In this document: positions 3,031 to 23,066 of the stretch, in pieces
Layout of the letters: each line of letters begins with the position of its first letter
Position numbering within the stretch: position 1 is the stretch's first letter
Assembly (NCBI GenBank): GCA_025289735.1
Contig: GCA_025289735.1_4764.2
DNA length: 23,076 bases
Direction: 5' to 3' (one strand)
DNA from: a phage
Position numbers and translations under genes: made by a program
Notes under the pieces: generated by a model
Told to the model about the DNA's origin: nothing
What the model saw: the letters and a program-made list of their open reading frames with translations, nothing else
Database searches by the model: none

Positions 3031-6000
3031 ATGGCAGATTTTTCTCAACATTTCAAGGCCACATTTGGCTTTGACGCTGGTAATGAAAAGGTCGTCAATG
3101 TAGCATTGGCTGATAAGAATGTCAACACCGATGCGGTCAACGTTGAATTTTTCAATTACCATAATGGTATTACTCAGTATGACACAACTCGCGGTTATGA
3201 TCAATACGGCACTACAATCTATCAAAACCGTCCGTATTATGCAAAAGAAGATATCGCAAAACCAGCAGGTGACTTTGACCCGACTAAATGGCAAGCACTG
3301 CGCACGGACCCACGTTGGGATTATGTTGCAGCAACTTCCGGCGATACTCCTTTAAAGTCCGGTGACTATATCGCAGCGGACTGTCAGTTTGCAAACTTGA
3401 CATTCTCAATGCCTACTAATCCTGTAGAGGGCGACACTATAACAGTAAAAGATATCGGTGGCAAGTGCGGTGTTAATGAGTTATCGTTCCTTTCGGTTGG
3501 TCATGAGTTCTATCATAATGGTGTGGTAAACAACCGCAAATGGTACTGTACTACCCCTTATGCAATGAACTACTTCATTTTTGTTCGCAATCGCTGGCAC
3601 GTTTACCAGACGGGAACGGAGCCACGCGGGGTATATGCACAACCATCTATCGACCCGATCCAGATGCAAAACGGTGATCAGGTATTTCGTCGTAGTTCGT
3701 TGGGTAATATTACCTTAGTGCTTCCTAAGTTTGCCAACAATGGCGACATGATCCAGACTACAGACCTTGACGGATTAACCGCAACCAACCACGTTACGGT
3801 TAAAGTTCATGAGCACGCAGAAGAACAATCAATTGGCACGTCCGGTCTAAAAGAGATTATCGGTAAGCGTAGCGGTCATGGTATATTCATCTTTGACAAG
3901 ACGGAAAACTTATGGCGTTTGTGGGATGGTGATCAGTCTGTTCGTCTTAAACCGATCATCGATGACACTCGCTTATCCCCTAATAGCTATGTTGCAGTAT
4001 TTGGTGATCGTGATGTTACCTTGACTTTACCGACCAATGTCGAGTCGGGTGATCGCATTCAAGTTTCTATGCAGTATATGCACGGAAACCAGACTTGCCG
4101 AATCATTACCTCAGAAGAGGATACAAAAATCCTTATGCAGAAAAACATGGTTCAGTTTCCTAAGCGTAGCGAGTACCCATTCAATGGGACCGATACATGG
4201 ACGGGAGTGTCTGAATTGTCTTTCAACGCTGCAAATGATTATGTACCTTATCTGGAGTTCTCTTATTCAGAAGGTGATGATGGTAAGAAATACTGGCTGG
4301 TGGCACATGCTCACCCGATTGTAGAACGAGTAGATCCGACTCGTAAAGATCGTGTTGGTGTTATTGCGCTTGCTACCCAAGATGAAACAAACAAAAACCA
4401 TGAAGATAATCCTAGCGACGAAGTTGCGGTGACTCCAAAGGTTCTGGCTAACAAAACAGCCAACGAAACTCGACGCGGTATTGCTCGCATTGCAACTCAA
4501 GCGGAAACGCATCAAGATACTGGTTCCAGCTTCCTGGATGATGTTATCGTTACACCTAAAAAGTTAAATGACTGTGTTGCTACCGAAGACCGTCGTGGTG
4601 TGATGGAAATTGCAACTCAACATGAAACCAACGAAGGTTTAGACGATACTCGCGCAATCACTCCTAAGAAGTTAGAAGAGCGTCGAGCGTCAGAGGATCT
4701 TGCTGGTATCGCTGAAATTGTTCAGGTAGGCGGTAGTGCTGCCGCTCGACGTGGCGAAGCTGGTACAGGGATCTATAACATCAACGACCATGCTAAAATC
4801 GTTACTCCGCAAAACATCAACGAAGTTAAGGCGACCGAAACTTCCCGTGGTGTTGGGTATCTGGCAACTGACGCGGAAGTGCAAGGGGCTACAGAATCAA
4901 CCCCGCAAGATGCTTTACTAATCACGACTCGCACGCTAACGAAACGTACTGCTACCGAATCGCGTACTGGTATCGCTGAAATTGCAACTCAGGAAGAAAC
5001 AAACTTAGGTCAAAGTGATAACCATATCATCACGCCTAAAAAGCTGCATACTCGCCGCGCAACGGAAACTTTACATGGTTTAGCAGAAATTGCAACTCAA
5101 GAAGAGTTTGACGCAGGTCGTGACGATGCTCGCATTTCTACCCCATTGAAGATTAAAACCTTCTTTGAGAATGCACAGCGTTTGAAAGTAGACCCGACTC
5201 AGGGGCTTAACCTTACGGGTGACTTGTGGCAAGGTATCATGATCAGCGGTCTTGATGCAACCGAAGACACAAAAGGTGTCGCTAAAGTTGCTACTACTCA
5301 GCTTACGGATGTTGGTCAAGATGATACTACAATCATCACTCCTAAAAAGCTGCAAGGCAAAAAGGCCACCGAAGGTAAAGAAGGTATTATCCGAGTTGGT
5401 ACTCAAGCCGAAACCGTGGCTGGTGCACTGGCTAATGTAGCAATTTCTCCGAAGAACTTCAAATATGTTGTTCAGACAGAGGATACATGGAAAGCAACCG
5501 AAGCGCGTCGTGGTTTCTTGAAAGTTGCTACTCAGGAAAACTGTTTTGTTGGTGATAATCTGCAAGGTTCTACTCAAGAACTAGGAAACTACCAGCATGA
5601 CGGAATTGCTGTTACCCCGAAAGGATTAAACTACGCACTTGCTAATTTCTTACCTAAGATGGCAACCGCTCAGAATAGTTTGAAATTGGGTAACGTAGAG
5701 GCCGCTAAATGGGCGCGTAGAGACATTGACCAGACCATAGAGAGCAATTACACGTTTAATAAAAAAGTTAACGTGAAGGGCGATTTAGAGTGCTTAAAAT
5801 CAGGTTCCTTTGAAACTCTGTCTGTGACTAAGAACTCGACCGATGTTCCGAGTAATGGTCATCTGGTGTTGGGTGAGCGTGGAGTTGACGGTCACACCGG
5901 AATTACTCTGCATGGCACAACCGCATCGGAAGGCATGAAAAACTCTTGGTCTATTATCGTTGGTGGTACGGGAACAGCGCAAGTTGTTGATAGTGATGCT

Positions 6001-6771
6001 ATCGCTTTCGGTAAAATCAATGATGGTGGAGTCGTTGAGCATTACGCCTTTGCTATGAAACACAATGGCGACGCGACAGCATATAGAGACTTTATTGCAG
6101 GTCGTAACCTGTATGCGAAACAAGGCGGTTTATACATTGTTGACCAGTCTAATCCGGCAATGACTCGTTCCCCAGATGGTATGCTGAATATCGGTCACGG
6201 TGGAAGTGTTAACATCAAGGCAGGTCATCAAACGTTAACTACAGAGATCGCCGGACAGAAATATCAGATCGTACACGCAGGAAACGCTGACGAAGTTCTT
6301 AACCGTCAGTTTGTTAAGAATGCTGGCGATACAATGGTCGGTAAGCTGACTATGGATAATGCGCCTATTGTTTCTGTTAAGCATGAAGCTAGCGCGGCAA
6401 CCGCTCCGGCAATCAGCAACATCGGTTTCTGGAATATGCGCGTTACTACCCAGAACATCAAAGAAACTTATCCAGAGAAGAAAAACGGTACTCTGATGCA
6501 ATGGGGTACTGACGCGGACGGGCTTACCCAGCTTTGGTCCCCCGATGGTACTCATAAACATTATATCCGTTCCGGTACTGGTGGTCAATGGACCGCATGG
6601 GGTGAAATTTACACCAAACAGAATAAGCCTACCGCTCAGGAAATCGGGGCAGTAGTTGCAGAAGGTGGTTTAATGAACTCTATGACGGTTCGTGATTGGA
6701 TCAAAGTTGGTAATGTTAAAATCATCGCCAATAATCTGACTCGTACCGTAGATTTTATCTGGGAAGACTAA
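3031..6771 (+). CDS. 34: long tail fiber proximal subunit gp34
   Basis: 1246 aa (T4 gp34 is about 1289 aa). Shared motifs include VNVALAD, PKPAG.F, W.ALRTD, GD.I...DIGGK.GVN, LWRL.DGD, QFPKRSEYP, ELSFN...YVP.LEF, the repeated ITPKKL...ATE..G.AEIATQ units and C-terminal RD.I.VGNV.I. Confidence 0.9.
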   Translation: MADFSQHFKATFGFDAGNEKVVNVALADKNVNTDAVNVEFFNYHNGITQYDTTRGYDQYGTTIYQNRPYYAKEDIAKPAGDFDPTKWQALRTDPRWDYVAATSGDTPLKSGDYIAADCQFANLTFSMPTNPVEGDTITVKDIGGKCGVNELSFLSVGHEFYHNGVVNNRKWYCTTPYAMNYFIFVRNRWHVYQTGTEPRGVYAQPSIDPIQMQNGDQVFRRSSLGNITLVLPKFANNGDMIQTTDLDGLTATNHVTVKVHEHAEEQSIGTSGLKEIIGKRSGHGIFIFDKTENLWRLWDGDQSVRLKPIIDDTRLSPNSYVAVFGDRDVTLTLPTNVESGDRIQVSMQYMHGNQTCRIITSEEDTKILMQKNMVQFPKRSEYPFNGTDTWTGVSELSFNAANDYVPYLEFSYSEGDDGKKYWLVAHAHPIVERVDPTRKDRVGVIALATQDETNKNHEDNPSDEVAVTPKVLANKTANETRRGIARIATQAETHQDTGSSFLDDVIVTPKKLNDCVATEDRRGVMEIATQHETNEGLDDTRAITPKKLEERRASEDLAGIAEIVQVGGSAAARRGEAGTGIYNINDHAKIVTPQNINEVKATETSRGVGYLATDAEVQGATESTPQDALLITTRTLTKRTATESRTGIAEIATQEETNLGQSDNHIITPKKLHTRRATETLHGLAEIATQEEFDAGRDDARISTPLKIKTFFENAQRLKVDPTQGLNLTGDLWQGIMISGLDATEDTKGVAKVATTQLTDVGQDDTTIITPKKLQGKKATEGKEGIIRVGTQAETVAGALANVAISPKNFKYVVQTEDTWKATEARRGFLKVATQENCFVGDNLQGSTQELGNYQHDGIAVTPKGLNYALANFLPKMATAQNSLKLGNVEAAKWARRDIDQTIESNYTFNKKVNVKGDLECLKSGSFETLSVTKNSTDVPSNGHLVLGERGVDGHTGITLHGTTASEGMKNSWSIIVGGTGTAQVVDSDAIAFGKINDGGVVEHYAFAMKHNGDATAYRDFIAGRNLYAKQGGLYIVDQSNPAMTRSPDGMLNIGHGGSVNIKAGHQTLTTEIAGQKYQIVHAGNADEVLNRQFVKNAGDTMVGKLTMDNAPIVSVKHEASAATAPAISNIGFWNMRVTTQNIKETYPEKKNGTLMQWGTDADGLTQLWSPDGTHKHYIRSGTGGQWTAWGEIYTKQNKPTAQEIGAVVAEGGLMNSMTVRDWIKVGNVKIIANNLTRTVDFIWED
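4369..5566 (+). repeat. intragenic tandem degenerate repeats within gp34
   Basis: At least seven copies of the unit TPKKL-(x)-ATE-(x)-G-(x)-EIATQ-E are visible in the translation. Boundaries approximate. Confidence 0.7.
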
Positions 6772-9414: not shown

Positions 9415-9681
9415 GTGAATATGTCCAATCAACATGAACAAATGATTAATGTCCTGAAAGTACGTCTGTTTGACACTCAAGAAAAGGCCGCATTCTTAGA
9501 AGGCCAACTGAAAGATCGTGAGCGTGTATTGATGGAACTGGTACGCATTCTGGGTATTCAGCCAGACGAAAACGGGACTGTTTCCCTTGATGCTATCGTC
9601 GAAGAAGTGAAAGCACTTCTCCCTAAAGACGAAGCCGCAGAAGCCGCAGAAGAGGAAGTAGAACTGATCACGGAGGCTTGA
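9415..9681 (+). CDS. 57A: gp57A-like tail fiber assembly chaperone (small acidic coiled-coil protein)
   Basis: 88 aa, acidic, heptad-like, between gene 1 and the 57B-like gene; size and neighbourhood match T4 57A. Sequence-level match not verified. Confidence 0.5.
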   Translation: MNMSNQHEQMINVLKVRLFDTQEKAAFLEGQLKDRERVLMELVRILGIQPDENGTVSLDAIVEEVKALLPKDEAAEAAEEEVELITEA

Positions 9682-9683
9682 TT

Positions 9684-10148
9684 ATGACCCCGTTTAGAGA
9701 ATCCGTTAAAGGTACATATGCGGCGGTTAAATTCACTGAGGATACACTAGACCGCATTGAAAAATTGCAGGAGTTCTACGATCTTCCTAATGCCGTTCCT
9801 CGTGATAAACTGCATAGCACTATCTTATATTCTCGTGTCTATGTTCCGTTTATCCCAGAAGAAGGGGAGAAGTTCTTAGGCTCTCTGTGTCATCTGAAAG
9901 TGTTTGAAACACAATCCGGTACTAATGCGCTTGTGCTGGCATTTGAAAGCGACTACATGCAATTCAGACACGATATCGGCACTGCTTTAGGTGCGACGTG
10001 GGATTATCCTGAATATGTACCGCATATCACGCTTTCTTATGATGTTGGTGCGCGTAAATTTGGCACTGACCTAGAGTTCGATTTAGAGATTGTCCGATCT
10101 CATGAGTATGTCGAAGATCTAGACCTGGAGTGGACGACCAAACTGTAA
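9684..10148 (+). CDS. acb1: 2H phosphoesterase, 57B/Acb1-like (anti-CBASS cyclic-oligonucleotide phosphodiesterase candidate)
   Basis: 154 aa from ATG at 9684 (the track start 9678 is TTG; GGAGG RBS 7 nt upstream of 9684). Two H-x-T-x motifs (HSTILY, HITLSY) typical of 2H phosphoesterases; T4 57B/Acb1 is about 152 aa and adjacent to 57A and gene 1. Confidence 0.65.
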   Translation: MTPFRESVKGTYAAVKFTEDTLDRIEKLQEFYDLPNAVPRDKLHSTILYSRVYVPFIPEEGEKFLGSLCHLKVFETQSGTNALVLAFESDYMQFRHDIGTALGATWDYPEYVPHITLSYDVGARKFGTDLEFDLEIVRSHEYVEDLDLEWTTKL

Positions 10149-10868: not shown

Positions 10869-11072
10869 ATGGAATTTGATATGGTTAAAGCAAAATTTAT
10901 GGGTAAGGATAAGAGCGGTAAAACATTTGTTATTAATAGAACATTGTTTCGCTCTGACCTTAAGTGGGTAACACAACAATTTGCGGAAGTCAACGAGGCA
11001 GTTGTGACATGCTTCGTTGATGATAAAAAAGTTTTTGAAATTGATCGTCGTGGGGTGTCTAATGATCACTAA
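10869..11072 (+). CDS. hypothetical protein (67 aa)
   Basis: ORF with GGTGA RBS; first gene of a translationally coupled chain. Confidence 0.55.
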   Translation: MEFDMVKAKFMGKDKSGKTFVINRTLFRSDLKWVTQQFAEVNEAVVTCFVDDKKVFEIDRRGVSNDH

Positions 11073-11259
11073 ACTGTTTAGTAATACTTTGTTTCTGATT
11101 GCATTTGTTTTCTTTCTGTGTCTGATGATCGGTGTTGTTACAGTTGGTAGCTATTCCGGTATTACCTTAGATGATTTTTGCAAACTTGTTTTGATCTCGT
11201 TTATACCTAGTATTCTGCTCGCTTTATGTGGTGCTTTTAAATGGCTTTGTACGCTATGA
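11062..11259 (+). CDS. small membrane protein (65 aa)
   Basis: ATG at 11062 overlaps the upstream stop; hydrophobic, two predicted TM helices. The track start 11017 is probably too far upstream. Confidence 0.55.
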   Translation: MITKLFSNTLFLIAFVFFLCLMIGVVTVGSYSGITLDDFCKLVLISFIPSILLALCGAFKWLCTL

Positions 11260-11366
11260 ACGAAATAGAACGAATGATGTTGATAGGTGGACCGGAGTTC
11301 ACTAAATTTGATGCAATTCTTATTGCGTTGGGTTTTCTTATGATCTGTTGTATGGTGGCGCTATGA
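11256..11366 (+). CDS. possible micro-protein (36 aa, hydrophobic)
   Basis: ATG at 11256 overlaps the upstream stop (ATGA); its own stop overlaps the next ATG at 11363. Manual translation MNEIERMMLIGGPEFTKFDAILIALGFLMICCMVAL. Confidence 0.35.
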   Translation: MNEIERMMLIGGPEFTKFDAILIALGFLMICCMVAL

Positions 11367-11587
11367 GTAGCATAAAATATTTTGCTTTCTTGTGTTTTAT
11401 GATGTTCTTCACATTCTTAGCATGTGTTTTCTTTACCTGGCTTGCTCATGTTGATAATGCAACCGGACCGTTTTACTTCTTCTGTGTATTGTCTGTGTTG
11501 ACTGGTGCTCTTGTTACGTGGATGATTCGAGATTGTTACGGAATGTATAAGTTTGAAAAGACTCGACCGAAATGGGGCAAACGATGA
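11363..11587 (+). CDS. small membrane protein (74 aa)
   Basis: Hydrophobic ORF, ATG at 11363 (track start 11348 is TTG). Confidence 0.55.
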   Translation: MSSIKYFAFLCFMMFFTFLACVFFTWLAHVDNATGPFYFFCVLSVLTGALVTWMIRDCYGMYKFEKTRPKWGKR

Positions 11588-15582: not shown

Positions 15583-15972
15583 ATGTTTAAATTATCTCAA
15601 AGAAGCAAAGATCGGCTTGTTGGTGTACATCCTGATCTGGTAAAAGTCGTTCATCGTGCGTTAGAACTGACTCCGGTCGATTTTGGTATTACGGAAGGTG
15701 TGCGTAGTCTAGAAACGCAAAAGAAATATGTTGCGGAAGGTAAATCTAAGACTATGAAATCTCGTCATCTTCACGGTTTCGCGGTTGACGTTGTAGCGTA
15801 TCCGAAAGATAAGGATACATGGAACATGAAATACTACCGCATGATCGCGGATGCATTTAAACAAGCTGGTCGAGAATTGGGTGTTCCTGTTATCTGCGGT
15901 GTTGATTGGGTTACTTTTAAAGACGGACCGCATATGGAACTCGATAAAAAGGTATATCCAGACCCGGTATAA
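15583..15972 (+). CDS. endolysin, L-alanyl-D-glutamate peptidase (peptidase M15, T5-type)
   Basis: 129 aa; similar to T5 endolysin as recalled (VHPDL.KVV.RALELTPVDFGI.EGVR; SRHLHGFAVDV with H-x6-D zinc site; DGPHMEL). Occupies the position of T4 gene e but belongs to a different enzyme family. Confidence 0.8.
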   Translation: MFKLSQRSKDRLVGVHPDLVKVVHRALELTPVDFGITEGVRSLETQKKYVAEGKSKTMKSRHLHGFAVDVVAYPKDKDTWNMKYYRMIADAFKQAGRELGVPVICGVDWVTFKDGPHMELDKKVYPDPV

Positions 15973-16017: not shown

Positions 16018-16593
16018 ATGGCTTTTAAATATTGGGATGAATCCCTACAAAACGAGATAAAACTTAGATATGCTCATATAGAGGGTATCTTATATTATAG
16101 AGTCGATAGTAAAGCTATCAAAGGACGACCATTAGGGAGTAGATATAAACACGGCGATTTAGTTAAAGTCAGAACAAATAAAGATGGTCATCTTAGATTT
16201 TGGCATAGTAGAGATGACGGTCTTCCTAGAGTTCATCTATTCGTGCATAGGGTTGTTTGGTTTCTAGAACATGGGACGCAAGTTAGATTAATTGATCATA
16301 TTGACGGTAATCCTGCGAATAACAATCCTCCAAATCTTAGGGAGGCAACCGACGCGCAAAATCAACATAATAGAAAGAAGAAGTCTAAAAAGTTTTCTAG
16401 TGTGTATAAGGGTGTTAGTAAGTCTAACAGGAAGGATTTGCGTAAGAAATGGAGAGCTAGTATAATGGTCAACCTAAAAAGACATGTTCTTGGACAATAT
16501 GACACAGAAATCGAAGCTGCAATCGCTTATGATAATGCAGCTAGGAAATTTTATGGAGAATATGCTCTATTGAATTTCCCAGATCCAAAATAA
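16018..16593 (+). CDS. HNH homing endonuclease with C-terminal AP2 DNA-binding domain
   Basis: HNH core HRVVWFLEHGTQVRLIDHIDGNPANNNPPNLREATDAQNQHN; AP2-like YKGVS...WRASI...GQYDTEIEAAIAYDNAARKFYG. AGA/AGG/ATA-rich codon usage contrasts with neighbouring genes. Confidence 0.8.
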   Translation: MAFKYWDESLQNEIKLRYAHIEGILYYRVDSKAIKGRPLGSRYKHGDLVKVRTNKDGHLRFWHSRDDGLPRVHLFVHRVVWFLEHGTQVRLIDHIDGNPANNNPPNLREATDAQNQHNRKKKSKKFSSVYKGVSKSNRKDLRKKWRASIMVNLKRHVLGQYDTEIEAAIAYDNAARKFYGEYALLNFPDPK

Positions 16594-17746: not shown

Positions 17747-18277
17747 ATGATGATTAAAAGATATTGTGATGACCATCCGGTCGAAGAGTGGAAAGTGATT
17801 GAGGATCTTTATCCGTTAACTCATTTTGAGATTAGTTCTCATGGTAGGGTTAGAAACTCCATAACAGGAAAATACTTGTCTATTGTAGACACGAAAGATT
17901 ATACTAAAGTTTCTTTTAAACATCGCCCCAGCAAAACACATAGAACGTTAAACATGCATAGAATGATGGCGGTTGCGTTTATTCCGAATCCAAACAACTA
18001 CCGTGTAGTTAACCATAAGGACGGAAACAAACGAAACTATGATCTTTATAATCTTGAATGGACTACAGACACACGAAATCTTGTTCATGCAAAGGAAGAA
18101 GGATTAAACAAAAATTGGGGCGAGAACCACGGAAACGCAAAACTAACAGATGAACAGGTGAAAGAGATTTTAGATTCTCCGCATATGAAGGGCGTAGAGC
18201 TTGCAAGAAAATATAATGTTTCACCGTCTGCTATTTGTCAGATTCGAAAAGGCGTTCGACGTAACGTAAAATACTAA
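17747..18277 (+). CDS. HNH homing endonuclease (NUMOD4-like N-terminus, HNH_3 core, C-terminal HTH)
   Basis: HFEISSHGRVRN (NUMOD4-like); HRMMAVAFIPNP..VNHKDGNKRNYDLYNLEW (HNH); NAKLTDEQVKEI...ARKYNVSPSAICQIRKG (DNA-binding). Confidence 0.8.
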   Translation: MMIKRYCDDHPVEEWKVIEDLYPLTHFEISSHGRVRNSITGKYLSIVDTKDYTKVSFKHRPSKTHRTLNMHRMMAVAFIPNPNNYRVVNHKDGNKRNYDLYNLEWTTDTRNLVHAKEEGLNKNWGENHGNAKLTDEQVKEILDSPHMKGVELARKYNVSPSAICQIRKGVRRNVKY

Positions 18278-19507: not shown

Positions 19508-19843
19508 ATGAGTGTTAAAGAAGTGTTTGTTTATACCGACTATGACGGGTGCGCCTATCTCACTGCTGGAAAACTTTACCGTTGTGAGATTATTCATGGT
19601 ACGCTAGGTCGAATTATGTGCGATCCTATTACAAAATTGTGGAAAAATAATCCTAGTGAGCGAGAAACTCTTATTAACCTAGATCCAGACGGTTGTTCAC
19701 ACTTGGGCTATAGAAAATGGCATATAGTTACACATGATGCTTATGGTATTCATCTTGCTACTAAAGAATTAACTATTGACAAGTTCAAGTTTAAAGAAAT
19801 CCCGTTTGTATACTGGCTTCGCAATTTGTTTAAGAAAGGATAA
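19508..19843 (+). CDS. small protein, paralog family member C (111 aa)
   Basis: Contains DPDGCSHLGYRKWHIV, matching the C.HL.G..W motif of the two upstream paralogs, with an extended C-terminus. Confidence 0.6.
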   Translation: MSVKEVFVYTDYDGCAYLTAGKLYRCEIIHGTLGRIMCDPITKLWKNNPSERETLINLDPDGCSHLGYRKWHIVTHDAYGIHLATKELTIDKFKFKEIPFVYWLRNLFKKG

Positions 19844-19847
19844 TAAA

Positions 19848-20270
19848 ATGGAAACAATTAACGTACATGTTCGCCGTAGTAAGCTGCGTAGATTCTTCGA
19901 AACCGAAATGCGCAAAACCAATGCGCAGATCAAAGAAAAGTGTTTGAATGATGGTTATGGTGAGTATATTTTCATTCGCTTTAGTCCGCATATGATCGAC
20001 CGTCTAACCGATCGTCATATCGATGAACATAAGACAATGGAACTATTCAATAAGATAGAAACTCGTTTGCCAGAGATCTTCGACTTCCTGAAAATGGAAG
20101 ACCGACCGAATCGATTAGAAATTACTGACGGTAACATGTGGATCGGGATGACAGTAGATCTAATCGAAGAGGGTAAGCCATATCACGGTCTATGCTGCCG
20201 AATGATTATAGAGAATCCAAAACGACTGGCGGGTAAAATGTCGGCGGTTGTTTTGAAGGTAGACCAATAA
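19848..20270 (+). CDS. regB: RegB sequence-specific endoribonuclease
   Basis: 140 aa from ATG 19848 (the track start 19776 is over-extended). Similar to T4 RegB as recalled: V.IRR.KLRR.FE.E.R..N..I.E, RLEITDGN.W.G.TV, CRM.I.N..RL.GK.S..V.K. Confidence 0.8.
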   Translation: METINVHVRRSKLRRFFETEMRKTNAQIKEKCLNDGYGEYIFIRFSPHMIDRLTDRHIDEHKTMELFNKIETRLPEIFDFLKMEDRPNRLEITDGNMWIGMTVDLIEEGKPYHGLCCRMIIENPKRLAGKMSAVVLKVDQ

Positions 20271-20293
20271 TGGAAATTGGTTAAAAATAATGC

Positions 20294-20322
20294 TTGACTT
20301 TCTGGTGATAGGGCTATATTAT
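20294..20322 (+). promoter_or_regulatory. sigma70-like promoter (TTGACT-17-TATTAT)
   Basis: TTGACT 20294-20299, TATTAT 20317-20322, upstream of the signal-peptide lytic transglycosylase gene. An overlapping TGCTTGA resembles a MotA box but its spacing is off. Confidence 0.45.
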
Positions 20323-20356
20323 GGAATCAGAAAGTTAAGCCAAACAGGAGAAATTA

Positions 20357-20947
20357 ATGTTAAAAGTTCTAAAAGCGATAGTATTGAGTCTGTCACTAGC
20401 CGTTGGTGCTACACACGCATCGACTAGCGCACCGATCAAAAAAGCGCCGATAGACAACTTTACAGCACACCAACTAGATAATTTACATTTCGCCTATCAA
20501 TACGGCGAGCAATTCGAGAAAAGCGGTAAGTTGAAAAAGTACCATCCGAATATTCGCTATAACGGAAAGGGTTTAGGTCACATCCTGGCGGGTATCGCAT
20601 GGCAAGAATCAAGCGCGGGTGCAAACTTAGCACCAAAGAAAAATCATCATGCTTATGGATTATTTCAAAATTACCTTAAAACGGTGAAAGCGAAAAATGC
20701 AAAGCGCGGTGTTAAAATGAGTGATCGCCAGACTATCAACTTTATCATGAATCGCGAGGTTTCTGCATTCTACGCGATGGATGAGTTAGCATACTGGCTG
20801 GATGTTCGAAACGGTAATATCCGACTCGCGCTAGCTTCTTACAATGCTGGATGGAACTATAAAGCCGGGTTAGGCTATGCTGATGACGTACTAAAAAAGG
20901 CTAACCATCTAAAGAGTAAAGGCATTCTTAAGACTAAACGCTATTGA
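20357..20947 (+). CDS. secreted lytic transglycosylase (SLT domain) with Sec signal peptide
   Basis: N-terminal MLKVLKAIVLSLSLAVGATHA-ST signal peptide; SLT motifs AGIAWQESS (catalytic E-S), YGLFQ and ASYNAG. Confidence 0.75.
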   Translation: MLKVLKAIVLSLSLAVGATHASTSAPIKKAPIDNFTAHQLDNLHFAYQYGEQFEKSGKLKKYHPNIRYNGKGLGHILAGIAWQESSAGANLAPKKNHHAYGLFQNYLKTVKAKNAKRGVKMSDRQTINFIMNREVSAFYAMDELAYWLDVRNGNIRLALASYNAGWNYKAGLGYADDVLKKANHLKSKGILKTKRY

Positions 20948-20954
20948 GGAATAT

Positions 20955-21314
20955 ATGAAAAAGTTGACAATAATTGCTATGATTGCTATGATGTTCTCGG
21001 CTGGTGCGCTTGCTAGTAATGAGCGCCCTTATCCAAAGTTTGAATACAAAGGATTTGAGATCAACAAAAAGATCATTAAAACTTTCTGTGATGATGATAA
21101 CATGTGTAGTGATTTTATCGCGCTCGAACTTGATGAAGCATACAAACAAGGTCGAGACGAAAAACGAAAAAATCGAGCGTGGGATCTGAGTATTGCCAGC
21201 TTTGCTAAAACAAAACGCAACCTTTGTGATACTGCCCCTGATAAGCAATTATGCTTTGCTTATCGCGACACACTGTTAAGCCGTTTTATGGCTGGGTTGT
21301 CTTCCCGTGACTAA
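20955..21314 (+). CDS. periplasmic protein with signal peptide (119 aa), unknown function
   Basis: MKKLTIIAMIAMMFSAGALA-SN signal peptide; four Cys in the mature part; directly downstream of the SLT gene. Confidence 0.6.
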   Translation: MKKLTIIAMIAMMFSAGALASNERPYPKFEYKGFEINKKIIKTFCDDDNMCSDFIALELDEAYKQGRDEKRKNRAWDLSIASFAKTKRNLCDTAPDKQLCFAYRDTLLSRFMAGLSSRD

Positions 21315-21329
21315 TGAGAGGTTTATATT

Positions 21330-21785
21330 ATGATTATTGATACTGTAAAGGGCGATCTCATCGCCCTGTTTAAACAAGGAAACGGTCATTTAATTCATGG
21401 TTGTAATTGTTTTCATACTATGGGTGCTGGTATTGCTGCAAAGATCGCGAAAGAGTTCCCGCAAGCGTTAGAGATTGACAAGCAAACTTCTCGCGGTAAG
21501 GTAGAAAAGCTGGGTGGGTTTAGTGTCTGGACGCATCAAGTTAATGGTTATAACTGGTGCGGGGTGAATCTATATACCCAATTCCGACCGGGTCCAAATG
21601 CTGAATATGGTGCTATCCTGAAAGGATTTGAGACTATCAATGATGTTTTTGAAGGTGCTATACAGCCTTTCTATATTCCTAAAATCGGTTGCGGTATCGG
21701 TGGCCTTGAGTGGGAATGTGTAGAAGAGATCATTAATATTGCTACTCCAGACATTAACATTGTGGTGGTTGAATATGACAAATAA
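21330..21785 (+). CDS. macrodomain protein, TARG1/OARD1/DarG-like (putative ADP-ribose hydrolase)
   Basis: 151 aa; GDLIALFKQGNGHLIHGCNCFHTMGAGIAAKIAKEFP and PKIGCGIGGLEWECVEEIINIA...INIVVVEY parallel human TARG1 segments (GDLF..C......AHCIS.DCRMGAGIA..FK..F; MPRIGCGLDRLQWENV..MIEEVF....I.I.VY). Confidence 0.6.
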   Translation: MIIDTVKGDLIALFKQGNGHLIHGCNCFHTMGAGIAAKIAKEFPQALEIDKQTSRGKVEKLGGFSVWTHQVNGYNWCGVNLYTQFRPGPNAEYGAILKGFETINDVFEGAIQPFYIPKIGCGIGGLEWECVEEIINIATPDINIVVVEYDK

Positions 21786-21969
21786 AAATGATCTATATTC
21801 CGGTGATTGGGTGAAACGTCAGTCTGTAGAAAACGTAACTTGTTTTCGTTGTTTCACTGAATACAATATAAAAACCGCTCCTGTTAGTGTTCCAAAGACA
21901 GACGGGTATTATATTAAAGAACCGCATTGCCCTAAATGTAAATGTCGATTATATTGGAGTCATCTATGA
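21775..21969 (+). CDS. small zinc-ribbon protein (64 aa)
   Basis: ATG 21775 (track start over-extended); C-x2-C ... C-x2-C pattern (CFRCF ... CPKCKC). Confidence 0.5.
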   Translation: MTNKNDLYSGDWVKRQSVENVTCFRCFTEYNIKTAPVSVPKTDGYYIKEPHCPKCKCRLYWSHL

Positions 21970-22184
21970 AGAAGCCGAATACCGCTCACATGAAAGAAAA
22001 CTGCCGATGTGTTAGATGTGGTTGGCCTATTATATTCACTTGCTGTAACGACGATATGCAGCGTTTACCGTGGGGAATGTGGGATTGGTGGATGTATTGC
22101 AGCAATAAAGGTTGTGACCATCATGAAGGTGAAGGAGTCTTTCAGGAAACACCTGATTGGGTGGAGGTGATAGAAAATGCTTGA
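21966..22184 (+). CDS. small Cys/His/Trp-rich protein (72 aa), probable zinc binding
   Basis: ATG 21966 overlapping the upstream stop; CRCVRCGW...CCNDD...CSNKGCDHHEGEG. Confidence 0.5.
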   Translation: MKKPNTAHMKENCRCVRCGWPIIFTCCNDDMQRLPWGMWDWWMYCSNKGCDHHEGEGVFQETPDWVEVIENA

Positions 22185-22470
22185 GACTATCATTAATCTT
22201 GTTGTGTGGACTTTTATTTTCGTTATTGTTATTATGGCTGGTATTGAGATTGTAAAACAATATCTATTGCAATCTCGAAATAAACATGTTGTAGTTGATA
22301 TGGACTCGCAAGGAAATAAACTGATCCGGTTAGAAGATGGTCGGGAATATTGGGTAGGTTATCCAAAGACACTACGCGGATTTATCTTTGCTATGGGTGT
22401 TTGCTTCTTTTTCCTTTGTATCTGGACTTATATCGGTTTAGGTCTTGTTGGATTTTTGGAGATTAATTAA
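22177..22470 (+). CDS. membrane protein (97 aa), two TM helices
   Basis: Hydrophobic N- and C-terminal segments flanking a soluble core; overlaps neighbours by a few nt. Confidence 0.55.
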   Translation: MLETIINLVVWTFIFVIVIMAGIEIVKQYLLQSRNKHVVVDMDSQGNKLIRLEDGREYWVGYPKTLRGFIFAMGVCFFFLCIWTYIGLGLVGFLEIN

Positions 22471-23066
22471 TGGCGCAATTATATTTCTACTATGCATCTA
22501 TGAACGCTGGCAAATCAACTTCCCTGTTACAAAGTGCTTATAACTATACCGAACGTGATATGCGAGTATTAATTCTTAAGCCAGCGATTGATAATCGAGA
22601 TTCAGAAAGTGAAGTCGTTTCCCGAATTGGTCTAAGTGCTCCAGCGATCACATTCACTAAATCAGATGATCTTTTCGATTTGGTTTATCGTGAATCACTA
22701 GGTAAGCGTAGACCAGATCGCTGGCGTCCTGATGCTGTGTTTGTAGACGAAGCCCAATTTATGACTAAAGAGCATGTTTTAGGCTTGTGTGCGCTTGTTG
22801 ATGATGCAAATATCCCTGTACTGTGCTATGGCCTTCGCACTGACTTTCAGGGCAATCTATTTGAAGGATCTGCGGCATTAATGGCATTTGCTGATAAACT
22901 GGTCGAAATGAAGGGTATTTGTCATTGTGGTAAGAAAGCAACAATGGTCCTTCGTGTAGATAAAGAGGGTAATGTTATTCGCGATGGTGCTCAAATAGAA
23001 GTTGGTGCAGAGGATAAATATGTTTCTGTGTGCCGTAAACATTTTATTGACGGTACTACCAAATAA
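22470..23066 (+). CDS. tk: thymidine kinase
   Basis: 198 aa; similar to T4 Tk as recalled: YAAMNAGKS.SLL..A.NY.ER.M.VL.LKPAID.RDS..EVVSRIG, VFVDEAQF, YGLRTDF.G.LFEGS..L.A.ADKL.E.K..CHCGKKA. Confidence 0.9.
   Translation: MAQLYFYYASMNAGKSTSLLQSAYNYTERDMRVLILKPAIDNRDSESEVVSRIGLSAPAITFTKSDDLFDLVYRESLGKRRPDRWRPDAVFVDEAQFMTKEHVLGLCALVDDANIPVLCYGLRTDFQGNLFEGSAALMAFADKLVEMKGICHCGKKATMVLRVDKEGNVIRDGAQIEVGAEDKYVSVCRKHFIDGTTK

Follow-up and report, generated by a model that had tools for sequence, protein, structure and literature searches.

The DNA analysed here, a stretch of 23,076 nucleotides that we call the window, comes from a Krischvirus of the RB49-like type and shares 98-99.5% nucleotide identity with RB49-like phages. 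At positions 20357-21314 its plus strand carries two consecutive genes, whose open reading frames lie exactly where a preliminary description of this DNA had placed them. The first (20357..20947) encodes a 196-aa pre-protein, a predicted exported family-1 (GH23, SLT-type) lytic transglycosylase, and is the orthologue of T4 vs.1 as identified by Pfam, PHROG, T4 match and AF2 model. The second (20955..21314), which begins 7 nt downstream of vs.1 behind a GAGG ribosome-binding site of its own, encodes a 119-aa pre-protein and is the orthologue of T4 vs (PF26829 'ValRS_modifier', PHROG 1256). The gene order regB–vs.1–vs–tk.4…tk is the same in the window, RB49 and T4, Vs.1 and its T4 counterpart share 52% identity over 158 residues (E 2e-55), and hhalign matches Vs to T4 Vs with 97.8% probability (E 1.3e-12) and with the cysteine residues aligned. 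From these matches, together with the RB49-like nucleotide identity, we regard it as virtually certain that the pair represents the Krischvirus (RB49-type) orthologues of T4 vs.1 (NP_049725) and vs (NP_049724), and the same holds for the RB49 and JSE copies.

The two window proteins are 97-100% identical to annotated Krischvirus proteins, and homologues of both are found at 26-60% identity in many phage genera, so the pair is not a chance arrangement. As an object it is ordinary, namely a known, annotated and conserved T4-type gene pair. The earlier view that such a pair is unexpected therefore has to be given up: more than 2000 phage records, from Straboviridae, Ackermannviridae, Felixounavirus and some jumbo contigs, contain a Vs.1 homologue, and the similarity of vs.1 to SLT has been in the literature since 2006 (PMC1524935). 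What is new is that an export signal and four cysteines are kept in essentially all Vs homologues, one clade of which has a lipobox, and that vs lies directly 3' of vs.1 in most vs.1-anchored loci while vs.1 also occurs without vs. Full-text literature searches returned nothing on a Vs signal peptide, nor on Vs.1 function past the SLT similarity.

The immediate surroundings of the pair differ from those in T4. The spacer between regB and vs.1 measures 86 nt in Krischvirus and 7 nt in T4, and vs.1 and vs are separated by a 7-nt gap in Krischvirus but overlap by 8 nt in T4. Within the longer spacer, a consensus scan located a sigma-70-type promoter-like site (TTGACT-17-TATTAT, 20294..20322, plus strand, 10/12 match), which, going by the pattern match and the T4-type organisation of the early region, is likely a putative early promoter for vs.1–vs. 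A GGAG Shine-Dalgarno core (20347..20350, plus strand) can be read 7 nt ahead of the ATG of vs.1. RegB, the endoribonuclease encoded just upstream, cleaves at GGAG as well, making this a candidate RegB site; the GGAG specificity is taken from the RB49/T4 annotation note. A minus-strand reading frame at 20934-21248, which overlaps vs, is a mechanical and unsupported ORF and was disregarded.

Vs.1 matches the Pfam SLT model PF01464 over residues 76-167 with 25.8 bits (gathering score 21.3, E 8.1e-6) and PHROG 600 with E 1e-59. All signature motifs are present, AWQESS at residues 81-86, GLFQ at 101-104 and YNAG at 162-165, which bears out the initial reading of this gene as an SLT enzyme with canonical motifs. 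That reading had been made dependent on the catalytic glutamate, and alignment places it at Glu84 (AWQ-E-SS, codon 20606..20608, plus strand), invariant in 24/24 homologues and in 55/55 distinct loci and aligned with the glutamate in the ...AWNES... motif of the T3SS transglycosylase EtgA. Residues G101, Q104, S161, Y162, N163, G165 and Y174 are likewise invariant in the 55 loci. The AF2 model (pLDDT 82.5, pTM 0.78) has a lysozyme-like alpha-helical fold, and the top 13 Foldseek matches of this model in the PDB are MltD or Slt-family lytic transglycosylases, with probabilities of 0.89-1.0 and weak E values of 0.02-0.24; a PDB profile search gave EtgA (8urn) as its sole match, again a weak one (E 0.37). 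Since the glutamate and all family-1 signature motifs are kept across 55 divergent loci, the active site appears to be a working one, and Vs.1 is probably catalytically active.

Vs matches PHROG 1256 over its full length (E 1.8e-33), and PF26829 is carried by homologues 97% identical to the window protein. The second gene, first taken as a nameless cysteine-containing protein, is thus vs, annotated as a ValRS modifier. Matches of Vs to the Dr_adhesin and MID_pPIWI_RE Pfam models, obtained with a Pfam copy that holds no Vs model, are noise (E >0.02), and neither Vs.1 nor Vs has a match in NCBIfam or PADLOC. The AF2 model of Vs (pLDDT 79) contains four helices (residues 32-45, 49-72, 76-86 and 97-116), and a Foldseek search of BFVD with this model returned Vs-family models only. 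The four cysteines, at residues 45, 51, 91 and 100, are invariant in 17/17 and in 55/55 sequences. By alignment and model, the first pair, Cys45/Cys51 (C-x5-C, 21087..21107, plus strand), sits in the turn between helices 1 and 2, and the second, Cys91/Cys100 (21225..21254, plus strand), in the loop before helix 4 and at the start of that helix. We infer that the four residues form two disulfides; the cluster of four could alternatively be a Zn site of a cytoplasmic protein.

Both proteins start with a predicted Sec/SPase I signal peptide, identified by analysis of the n, h and c regions. In Vs.1 it covers residues 1-21 (20357..20419, plus strand), with cleavage at THA/S or, alternatively, after residue 18 at VGA/T; the N-terminus MLKVLK-AIVLSLSLAVGA-THA/S combines two positive charges, a 12-13 residue hydrophobic core and a small-x-small site, and pLDDT is below 50 over residues 1-31. 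In Vs it covers residues 1-20 (20955..21014, plus strand), with cleavage at ALA/S in the N-terminus MKK-LTIIAMIAMMFSAGALA/SNE. Equivalent leaders precede the Vs.1 homologues of T4, Vi01 and Felixounavirus, and T4 Vs, which also has four cysteines, starts with a signal-like leader as T4 Vs.1 does; unlike T4 Vs.1, the Krischvirus protein has an Ala/Pro/Lys linker of about 12 residues after the leader. Tested with our own crude n/h/c-region heuristic, 51/52 full-length Vs homologues passed and so did at least 48/57 Vs.1 homologues, a minimum in that most Vs.1 failures arose where the ORF caller took an upstream start codon; across the window, 4/36 genes passed, two of them vs.1 and vs.

The leader sequence of Vs diverges among homologues while the leader as a feature is retained, and in one clade it takes the form of a lipobox (LSGC). 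With the leader, the lipobox clade and the invariant cysteines, prediction does not place Vs, T4 Vs included, in the cytoplasm. In E. coli expressing T4 Vs with an N-terminal His tag, the protein was recovered from the insoluble fraction alone (PMC8076793), which we count in favour of export. The signal peptides proposed earlier for the two proteins thus stand as tripartite leaders, and we consider it very probable from these predictions that Vs.1 and Vs are both exported. We rejected a SAR-endolysin reading of Vs.1: with 12-17 residues, the h-regions of the two leaders fall short of the length of a membrane anchor or SAR domain, and an AXA-type site follows. A virion-associated tail lysin was rejected as well, because a cleavable Sec leader would be incompatible with virion assembly in the cytoplasm and the PHROG tail and internal-virion matches of Vs.1 are marginal (E 2e-3 to 4e-3).

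The linkage of vs.1 and vs is tight and asymmetric. Starting from vs.1, we found vs downstream on the same strand in 62/68 loci, and in 53 of these the two genes are -8 to +7 nt apart; starting from vs, through five exact-protein look-ups, vs.1 was immediately upstream in 5/5 contexts, even where regB or tk was missing. The stop and start codons often overlap, and adjacency is kept where regB, tk.4 or tk has been lost or replaced, although an insertion of 0.5-1.2 kb separates the pair in Slopekvirus-type phages. The reverse case, vs.1 without vs, occurs in Ackermannviridae, Felixounavirus, some Aeromonas T4-likes and jumbo contigs. Of the two proteins, Vs changes the more quickly, with a mean pairwise identity of 35% as against 54% for Vs.1. 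Distances between the two proteins correlate (r = 0.69), which we set aside as a sign of co-evolution because shared ancestry alone gives such a correlation, and the adjacency itself may partly reflect the general conservation of synteny in T4-like genomes. Asymmetric linkage is the pattern that a model of an enzyme plus an accessory predicts, and, as vs sits behind vs.1 whereas vs.1 occurs alone, it supports an exported enzyme with a dependent partner.

On balance we lean towards this reading, an exported transglycosylase Vs.1 with an exported, dependent partner Vs, as the best explanation of the whole. The Vs.1 pre-protein would pass through the Sec pathway and be cleaved by signal peptidase I, and the periplasmic product would be a soluble family-1 lytic transglycosylase, with Glu84 as catalytic acid, that cuts the glycan strands of the host murein during the latent period. 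It would act as an accessory wall-remodelling enzyme, the main endolysin being another protein, in keeping with the first description, which had set Vs.1 apart from a cytoplasmic M15 endolysin: that ORF (15583-15972) matches Peptidase_M15_4 (E 4.8e-8) and the PHROG endolysin (E 5.5e-63), and a search of it for a hydrophobic leader found none. Vs would be translated directly behind Vs.1 from the same, presumably early, transcript, would be exported too, as a lipoprotein in one clade, and would take up a small four-helix fold stabilised by two disulfides between its invariant cysteines. As the dependent partner it might contact Vs.1 physically and either restrain the exported enzyme, as a regulator or inhibitor, so that it does no harm, or target or activate it. 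The mature forms of Vs.1 and Vs are both basic (predicted pI 9.9 and 8.3), so there is no obvious charge complementarity between them. We put the chances that Vs is functionally coupled to Vs.1 at about even, and consider it rather unlikely that it is specifically an inhibitor; a part of the pair in superinfection exclusion or lysis timing, as first suggested, is speculation. The interest of such a pair lies in why large virulent myoviruses of Gram-negative hosts should export a second wall-cutting enzyme.

This reading meets a long-standing label. The Vs family is annotated everywhere as 'valyl-tRNA synthetase modifier' (PHROG 1256, PF26829), a cytoplasmic function. Because the conserved export signal and the cysteine pattern conflict with such a function, the label probably does not describe the physiological role of the family, or at least not its sole role. 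Going further, it is possible, though doubtful, that this family, present in over a thousand phage genomes, really consists of exported, disulfide-bonded periplasmic proteins that control or direct Vs.1, and that the ValRS effect, described 50 years ago, was tied to the wrong ORF or arose from contact between Vs and ValRS after cell breakage. If so, T4-like phages would have a new module of enzyme and partner that works on the cell wall from the early stage of infection. Settling the label would lead either to the correction of a widespread annotation or to an unusual dual-location protein, and would also help to show how T4-like phages deal with the host wall ahead of lysis, in lysis timing, lysis inhibition, superinfection and murein recycling.

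Among the alternatives, the one that survives best gives Vs the narrower role of a periplasmic inhibitor, which would occupy the Vs.1 active site and keep the transglycosylase inactive until lysis, or would block a related enzyme from superinfecting phages, much as Spackle deals with the gp5 tail lysozyme. A muralytic enzyme exported from early infection would require restraint, Vs was not seen without Vs.1 in the five vs-anchored contexts whereas the reverse occurs, and the faster evolution of Vs would fit as well. Ivy has an inhibitory loop bracketed by a cysteine disulfide, and the C-x5-C loop of Vs, at the tip of a helix hairpin and presumably disulfide-bracketed, recalls it, a likeness that we treat as a lead only. 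Vs shows neither sequence nor fold similarity to the Spackle, Ivy, Pli and Mli inhibitors. Of the earlier proposal of an enzyme with its inhibitor or partner, the accessory partner is thus supported by the tight, asymmetric linkage, while a likeness to known inhibitors, and with it the analogy to Spackle in sequence or fold, falls away. What Vs shares with T4 Spackle (Sp) is the logic alone, that of a small signal-peptide periplasmic phage protein dealing with a muralytic enzyme, and with Ivy, PliC/MliC and PliG a predicted periplasmic or lipoprotein location. T4 also carries spackle, and since it holds the vs.1–vs pair too, the pair is not a spackle substitute. We consider this inhibitor model improbable.

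It is unlikely, and slightly more so, that the label is simply right. Vs would then be a cytoplasmic tau peptide acting on host ValRS, its N-terminus would be inefficient as a signal or part of the protein would stay inside, its adjacency to vs.1 would be T4-type synteny, and Vs.1 would work alone. The family name and the PHROG and Pfam labels speak for this, as does the gene order of T4-like phages, which is broadly conserved anyway. According to literature cited in PMC8076793, Vs binds host ValRS and changes its properties, and the classical T4 genetics and biochemistry cited there (Müller & Marchin 1975/1977) give vs a cytoplasmic target. Against it, a Sec-type leader is kept in all but one of the Vs homologues tested though its sequence varies, one clade carries a lipoprotein signal, the four cysteines are invariant, and vs stays with vs.1, often overlapping it, where neighbouring genes are lost or replaced. 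Tau was reported at about 10 kDa. That size is compatible with the vs ORF, but the predicted mature Vs of T4 (11.0 kDa) or of the window (11.6 kDa) comes closer to 10 kDa than the 13-kDa precursor does; if tau is Vs, the tau that was purified would have been exported and cleaved.

Less probable again is that Vs.1 is a signal-peptide (SP) endolysin, auxiliary or ancestral, which would build up in the periplasm and attack the murein once the holin collapses the membrane potential, with Vs unrelated to it. Nolan et al. proposed 'some role in cell lysis' for vs.1 (PMC1524935), in Campylobacter Fletchervirus phages the predicted endolysin is an SP-endolysin with an SLT domain (PMC7692668), and the Felixounavirus homologue of Vs.1, annotated 'putative lysin', lies 1.2 kb from spanin genes. 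The phage already has a canonical leaderless endolysin, however, as T4 has gene e; vs.1 belongs to the early region, with an early-type promoter-like site in front of it, and is set apart from the late lysis genes; and the tight linkage to vs would be left without explanation. The predicted Lys of Fletchervirus F352 resembles Vs.1 by domain and by an N/H/C signal for holin-independent export (PMC7692668), but it is the only endolysin predicted in its phage, whereas the window phage has the leaderless M15 endolysin besides Vs.1, and vs.1 differs from it in its early-region position and conserved downstream partner. That Vs.1 is a catalytically dead, murein-binding pseudo-enzyme is highly improbable: its Pfam score is just modestly over threshold and it matches solved transglycosylases weakly in both structure and sequence, but the catalytic glutamate and the family-1 motifs are invariant in 55 divergent loci.

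Outside phages, the preferred reading of an exported enzyme with a small partner has a counterpart in EtgA of the EPEC type III system (PDB 8urn), one of the small 'specialised' family-1 lytic transglycosylases that belong to secretion systems, although the match is the weak one noted above, Vs.1 is accompanied by no secretion apparatus and Vs is unrelated to EscI. Like Vs.1, EtgA has a GH23 domain of about 150 residues after a Sec leader, and both carry the ES, G-(L/M)-x-Q and (A/S)-Y-N-x-G motifs. EtgA has a small partner as well, 8urn being deposited as 'EscI inner rod protein type III secretion system, EtgA protein'.

The window is assigned by nucleotide comparison to the genome of a Krischvirus, a T4-type coliphage resembling RB49, with bases 19700-22500 being 98-99.5% identical to phages G2494, MIZ4, JSE and RB49. 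Both ORFs named in the preliminary description are present exactly where it had placed them, at 20357-20947 (196 aa) and 20955-21314 (119 aa). A 7-nt gap lies between them, a separate Shine-Dalgarno sequence precedes each, and RB49 and JSE annotate them as vs.1 and vs. The gene order regB, vs.1, vs, tk.4 (macro domain), small zinc-binding ORFs and tk is identical in T4. Dozens of phage records hold proteins 97-100% identical to Vs.1 or Vs; both genes, the families they belong to and the similarity to SLT were previously known, and the window is one more near-identical copy. ARAGORN found no tRNA genes across window positions 1-23076.

Vs.1 matched the Pfam SLT family (25.8 bits against a gathering score of 21.3, E 8e-6) and PHROG 600 (E 1e-59), and shares 52% identity with T4 Vs.1. 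Alignment of 24 homologues revealed an invariant catalytic-type Glu84 (AWQ-E-SS), H97, AYG-FQN (99-105), S161, Y162 and G165, while across 55 distinct IMG/VR loci E84, G101, Q104, S161, Y162, N163, G165 and Y174 were all invariant. Family-1 lytic transglycosylases carry E-S, G-L-M-Q-like and A-Y-N-x-G-like signatures, to which, judged by alignment, the invariant Vs.1 residues correspond. The AlphaFold2 model is all-helical (pLDDT 82.5, pTM 0.78) with residues 1-31 disordered, and its top PDB Foldseek matches were the lytic transglycosylases MltD and Slt (probability 0.97-1.0, with weak E of 0.02-0.1). A single PDB sequence-profile match was obtained, to EtgA, a transglycosylase of type III secretion (E 0.37); the Glu residues of the two align. 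Vs-coupled Vs.1 of T4 and the window contains no cysteine; cysteines occur in Vs.1 from the IMG/VR loci L065-L071 and L075 (Slopekvirus/KP15-like), L007 and L008, where Vs.1 is unlinked to Vs or lacks it, and some adjoin catalytic motifs (e.g., ESRACEN, YGCFQV).

The full length of Vs is covered by a match to PHROG 1256 (E 1.8e-33), 'valyl tRNA synthetase modifier'; Pfam PF26829 'ValRS_modifier' is present in close homologues, and the family profile aligned with T4 Vs (probability 97.8%, E 1.3e-12) with cysteines in register. It is a small family: when 1.84 billion representative proteins were scanned exhaustively with HMMER, only 16 clusters were returned, and all those with genomic context checked came from T4-like phage contigs. 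The AF2 model of Vs (pLDDT 79) begins with a leader and linker of low confidence, followed by four helices (32-45, 49-72, 76-86 and 97-116). Cys45 and Cys51 lie on either side of the turn joining helices 1 and 2, Cys91 lies in the loop preceding helix 4 and Cys100 at its start. None of the four cysteines varies in either sequence set (17/17 and 55/55).

Both proteins carry predicted export signals. The Vs.1 N-terminus combines a charged MLKVLK, a hydrophobic core AIVLSLSLAVGA and a small-x-small site (THA before S) of Sec/SPase I type; its leader contains no Cys and therefore no lipoprotein signal. Comparable leaders occur in T4 Vs.1 (MRKALLAGLLAISMMAHS before SEH) and in the Vi01 and Felixounavirus homologues. 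Vs begins with a textbook predicted signal peptide (MKK, LTIIAMIAMMFSAGALA, then SNE), as T4 Vs begins with MTK and ILVLCIGLISFSASASA, then DTS. A crude signal test was passed by 51 of 52 full-length unique Vs homologues versus 4 of 36 window genes, two of the four being vs.1 and vs. The leader is kept as a feature; its sequence is unconserved. One Vs clade has the lipobox MKKLFVLLVVFA-LSGC-K in place of the SPase I site (P0034, a further Vs sequence, and IMG/VR loci L030, L044, L045 and L064, with ORF starts at 3037, 2495, 2998 and 2998), implying that the same domain is lipoprotein-anchored there. The other two passing window ORFs, at 11017-11259 (80 aa) and 11348-11587 (79 aa), are unannotated, have TTG starts and strongly hydrophobic N-termini, and are probably small membrane proteins.

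The two genes are tightly but one-sidedly linked. We scanned 68 IMG/VR loci, fetched by the Vs.1 profile, with HMMs of both families, and vs lies downstream of vs.1 on the same strand in 62. The gap is -8 to +7 nt in 53 of these, many with ATGA-type or 8-nt overlaps as in T4; eight Slopekvirus-like loci have 0.5-1.2 kb inserted, and one (L046) has a 141-nt gap. The six loci with vs absent within 2.5 kb of vs.1 comprise Aeromonas 44RR-like phages together with three contigs (116-311 kb) that have a jumbo-phage-like Vs.1 homologue in common. Conversely, a reverse look-up with five divergent Vs proteins (8 contigs in all) placed a Vs.1 homologue immediately upstream in 8/8 (hmmsearch E 1e-57 to 1e-82), even on contigs without regB, tk.4 or tk. 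No Vs-like neighbour was found beside the Vs.1 homologues of Vi01 (Ackermannviridae) and a Felixounavirus, both retaining leader and Glu. This one-sided occurrence suggests that vs depends on vs.1 and vs.1 is independent of vs. Vs is also the faster-diverging protein (mean pairwise identity 35%, versus 54% for Vs.1). In L046 (3037-3364) vs is broken into two ORF pieces and in L012 (3041-3298) shortened to an 85-aa ORF, both beside an intact vs.1, which could reflect frameshift, sequencing error or pseudogenisation. In Aeromonas T4-like phages with vs.1 and without vs, the slot directly before tk.4 is filled by an unrelated protein of 146 aa that has several cysteines and a lipoprotein-like leader (…YGC…) (L052 3371-3811, L053 3618-4058, L073 3588-4028). 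This protein may have taken the place of Vs without being homologous to it.

A sigma-70-type site, TTGACT-17-TATTAT, lies in the regB–vs.1 spacer (20294-20322), and the position of the pair corresponds to the T4 early region; together these suggest early expression. The vs.1 ribosome-binding site includes GGAG (20347-20350), a motif cut by RegB according to RB49/T4 annotation notes. Another sigma-70-like site, TTGACA-17-TATGAT preceded by TG (11/12), falls within the first vs codons (20964-20992); it is the strongest in the region and, if real, would yield a tk.4 transcript without vs.

In the reading that the evidence favours most, Vs.1 would be a soluble family-1 lytic transglycosylase exported by Sec to the periplasm, and Vs a co-translated, exported, disulfide-stabilised small protein acting with or on it. 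The pair would form an accessory murein-handling module distinct from the leaderless M15 endolysin (15583-15972); candidate purposes include preparing the sacculus for lysis or for lysis inhibition, excluding superinfecting phages, and releasing muropeptides. Vs could equally be an activator or targeting factor of Vs.1. The preliminary description had suggested an inhibitor or partner; an enzyme with its inhibitor is one version of such an exported pair, which we consider rather improbable. The deposited title of the EtgA match, PDB 8urn, names an EscI inner-rod/EtgA protein; a transglycosylase of this small, specialised kind can therefore be partnered by a small protein other than an inhibitor. 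Vs.1 might possibly be an SP-endolysin (PMC7692668) or serve lysis, 'some role in cell lysis' having been suggested for vs.1 (PMC1524935), but both readings leave Vs unexplained.

The classical view, in which Vs modifies valyl-tRNA synthetase (ValRS), is unlikely: its label implies a cytoplasmic protein, and the sequence evidence for T4 and window Vs alike points the other way. The label goes back to studies of T4 in the 1970s (Müller & Marchin 1975/1977, cited in PMC8076793). Mature Vs is predicted at 11.0 kDa in T4 and 11.6 kDa in the window, the T4 precursor at ~13 kDa. The classical T4 peptide tau is reportedly ~10 kDa, which would fit a cleaved, exported form. The ORF assignment may be wrong, the ValRS complex may be made after cell breakage, or a Vs fraction may be kept inside the cell. 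N-terminally His-tagged T4 Vs was found only in the insoluble fraction in E. coli (2021 study, PMC8076793), which would fit a precursor or disulfide protein caught in the wrong compartment but proves nothing. The accessible literature apparently does not discuss that Vs combines systematically conserved export signals and cysteines with a one-sided linkage to Vs.1 through translational coupling; these make a 50-year-old curiosity directly testable, as a lead and not a result.

Two HNH homing-endonuclease-like ORFs lie at 16018-16593 (HNH_3 and AP2, between the endolysin and vs.8) and 17747-18277 (NUMOD4 and HNH_3, between vs.6 and nrdC.11); RB49 lacks genes at both positions, so they look like strain- or lineage-specific mobile insertions. 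A 1246-aa ORF at 3031-6771, for which no Pfam match was found, is by position and size probably the long-tail-fibre proximal subunit (gp34-like); its neighbours are rnh (RNase H, minus strand, 1821-2768) and an ORF of 379 aa. Directly downstream of vs, the tk.4 macro-domain protein (21330-21785; Pfam Macro E 1.3e-6, PHROG 'phosphatase') matches the PADLOC DarG antitoxin macro-domain model (E 3.9e-14) and might be an ADP-ribose-removing counter-defence enzyme. Positions 9678-10148 encode a protein clearly homologous to the anti-CBASS nuclease Acb1 (T4 57B; Pfam PF23474, E 1.5e-51).
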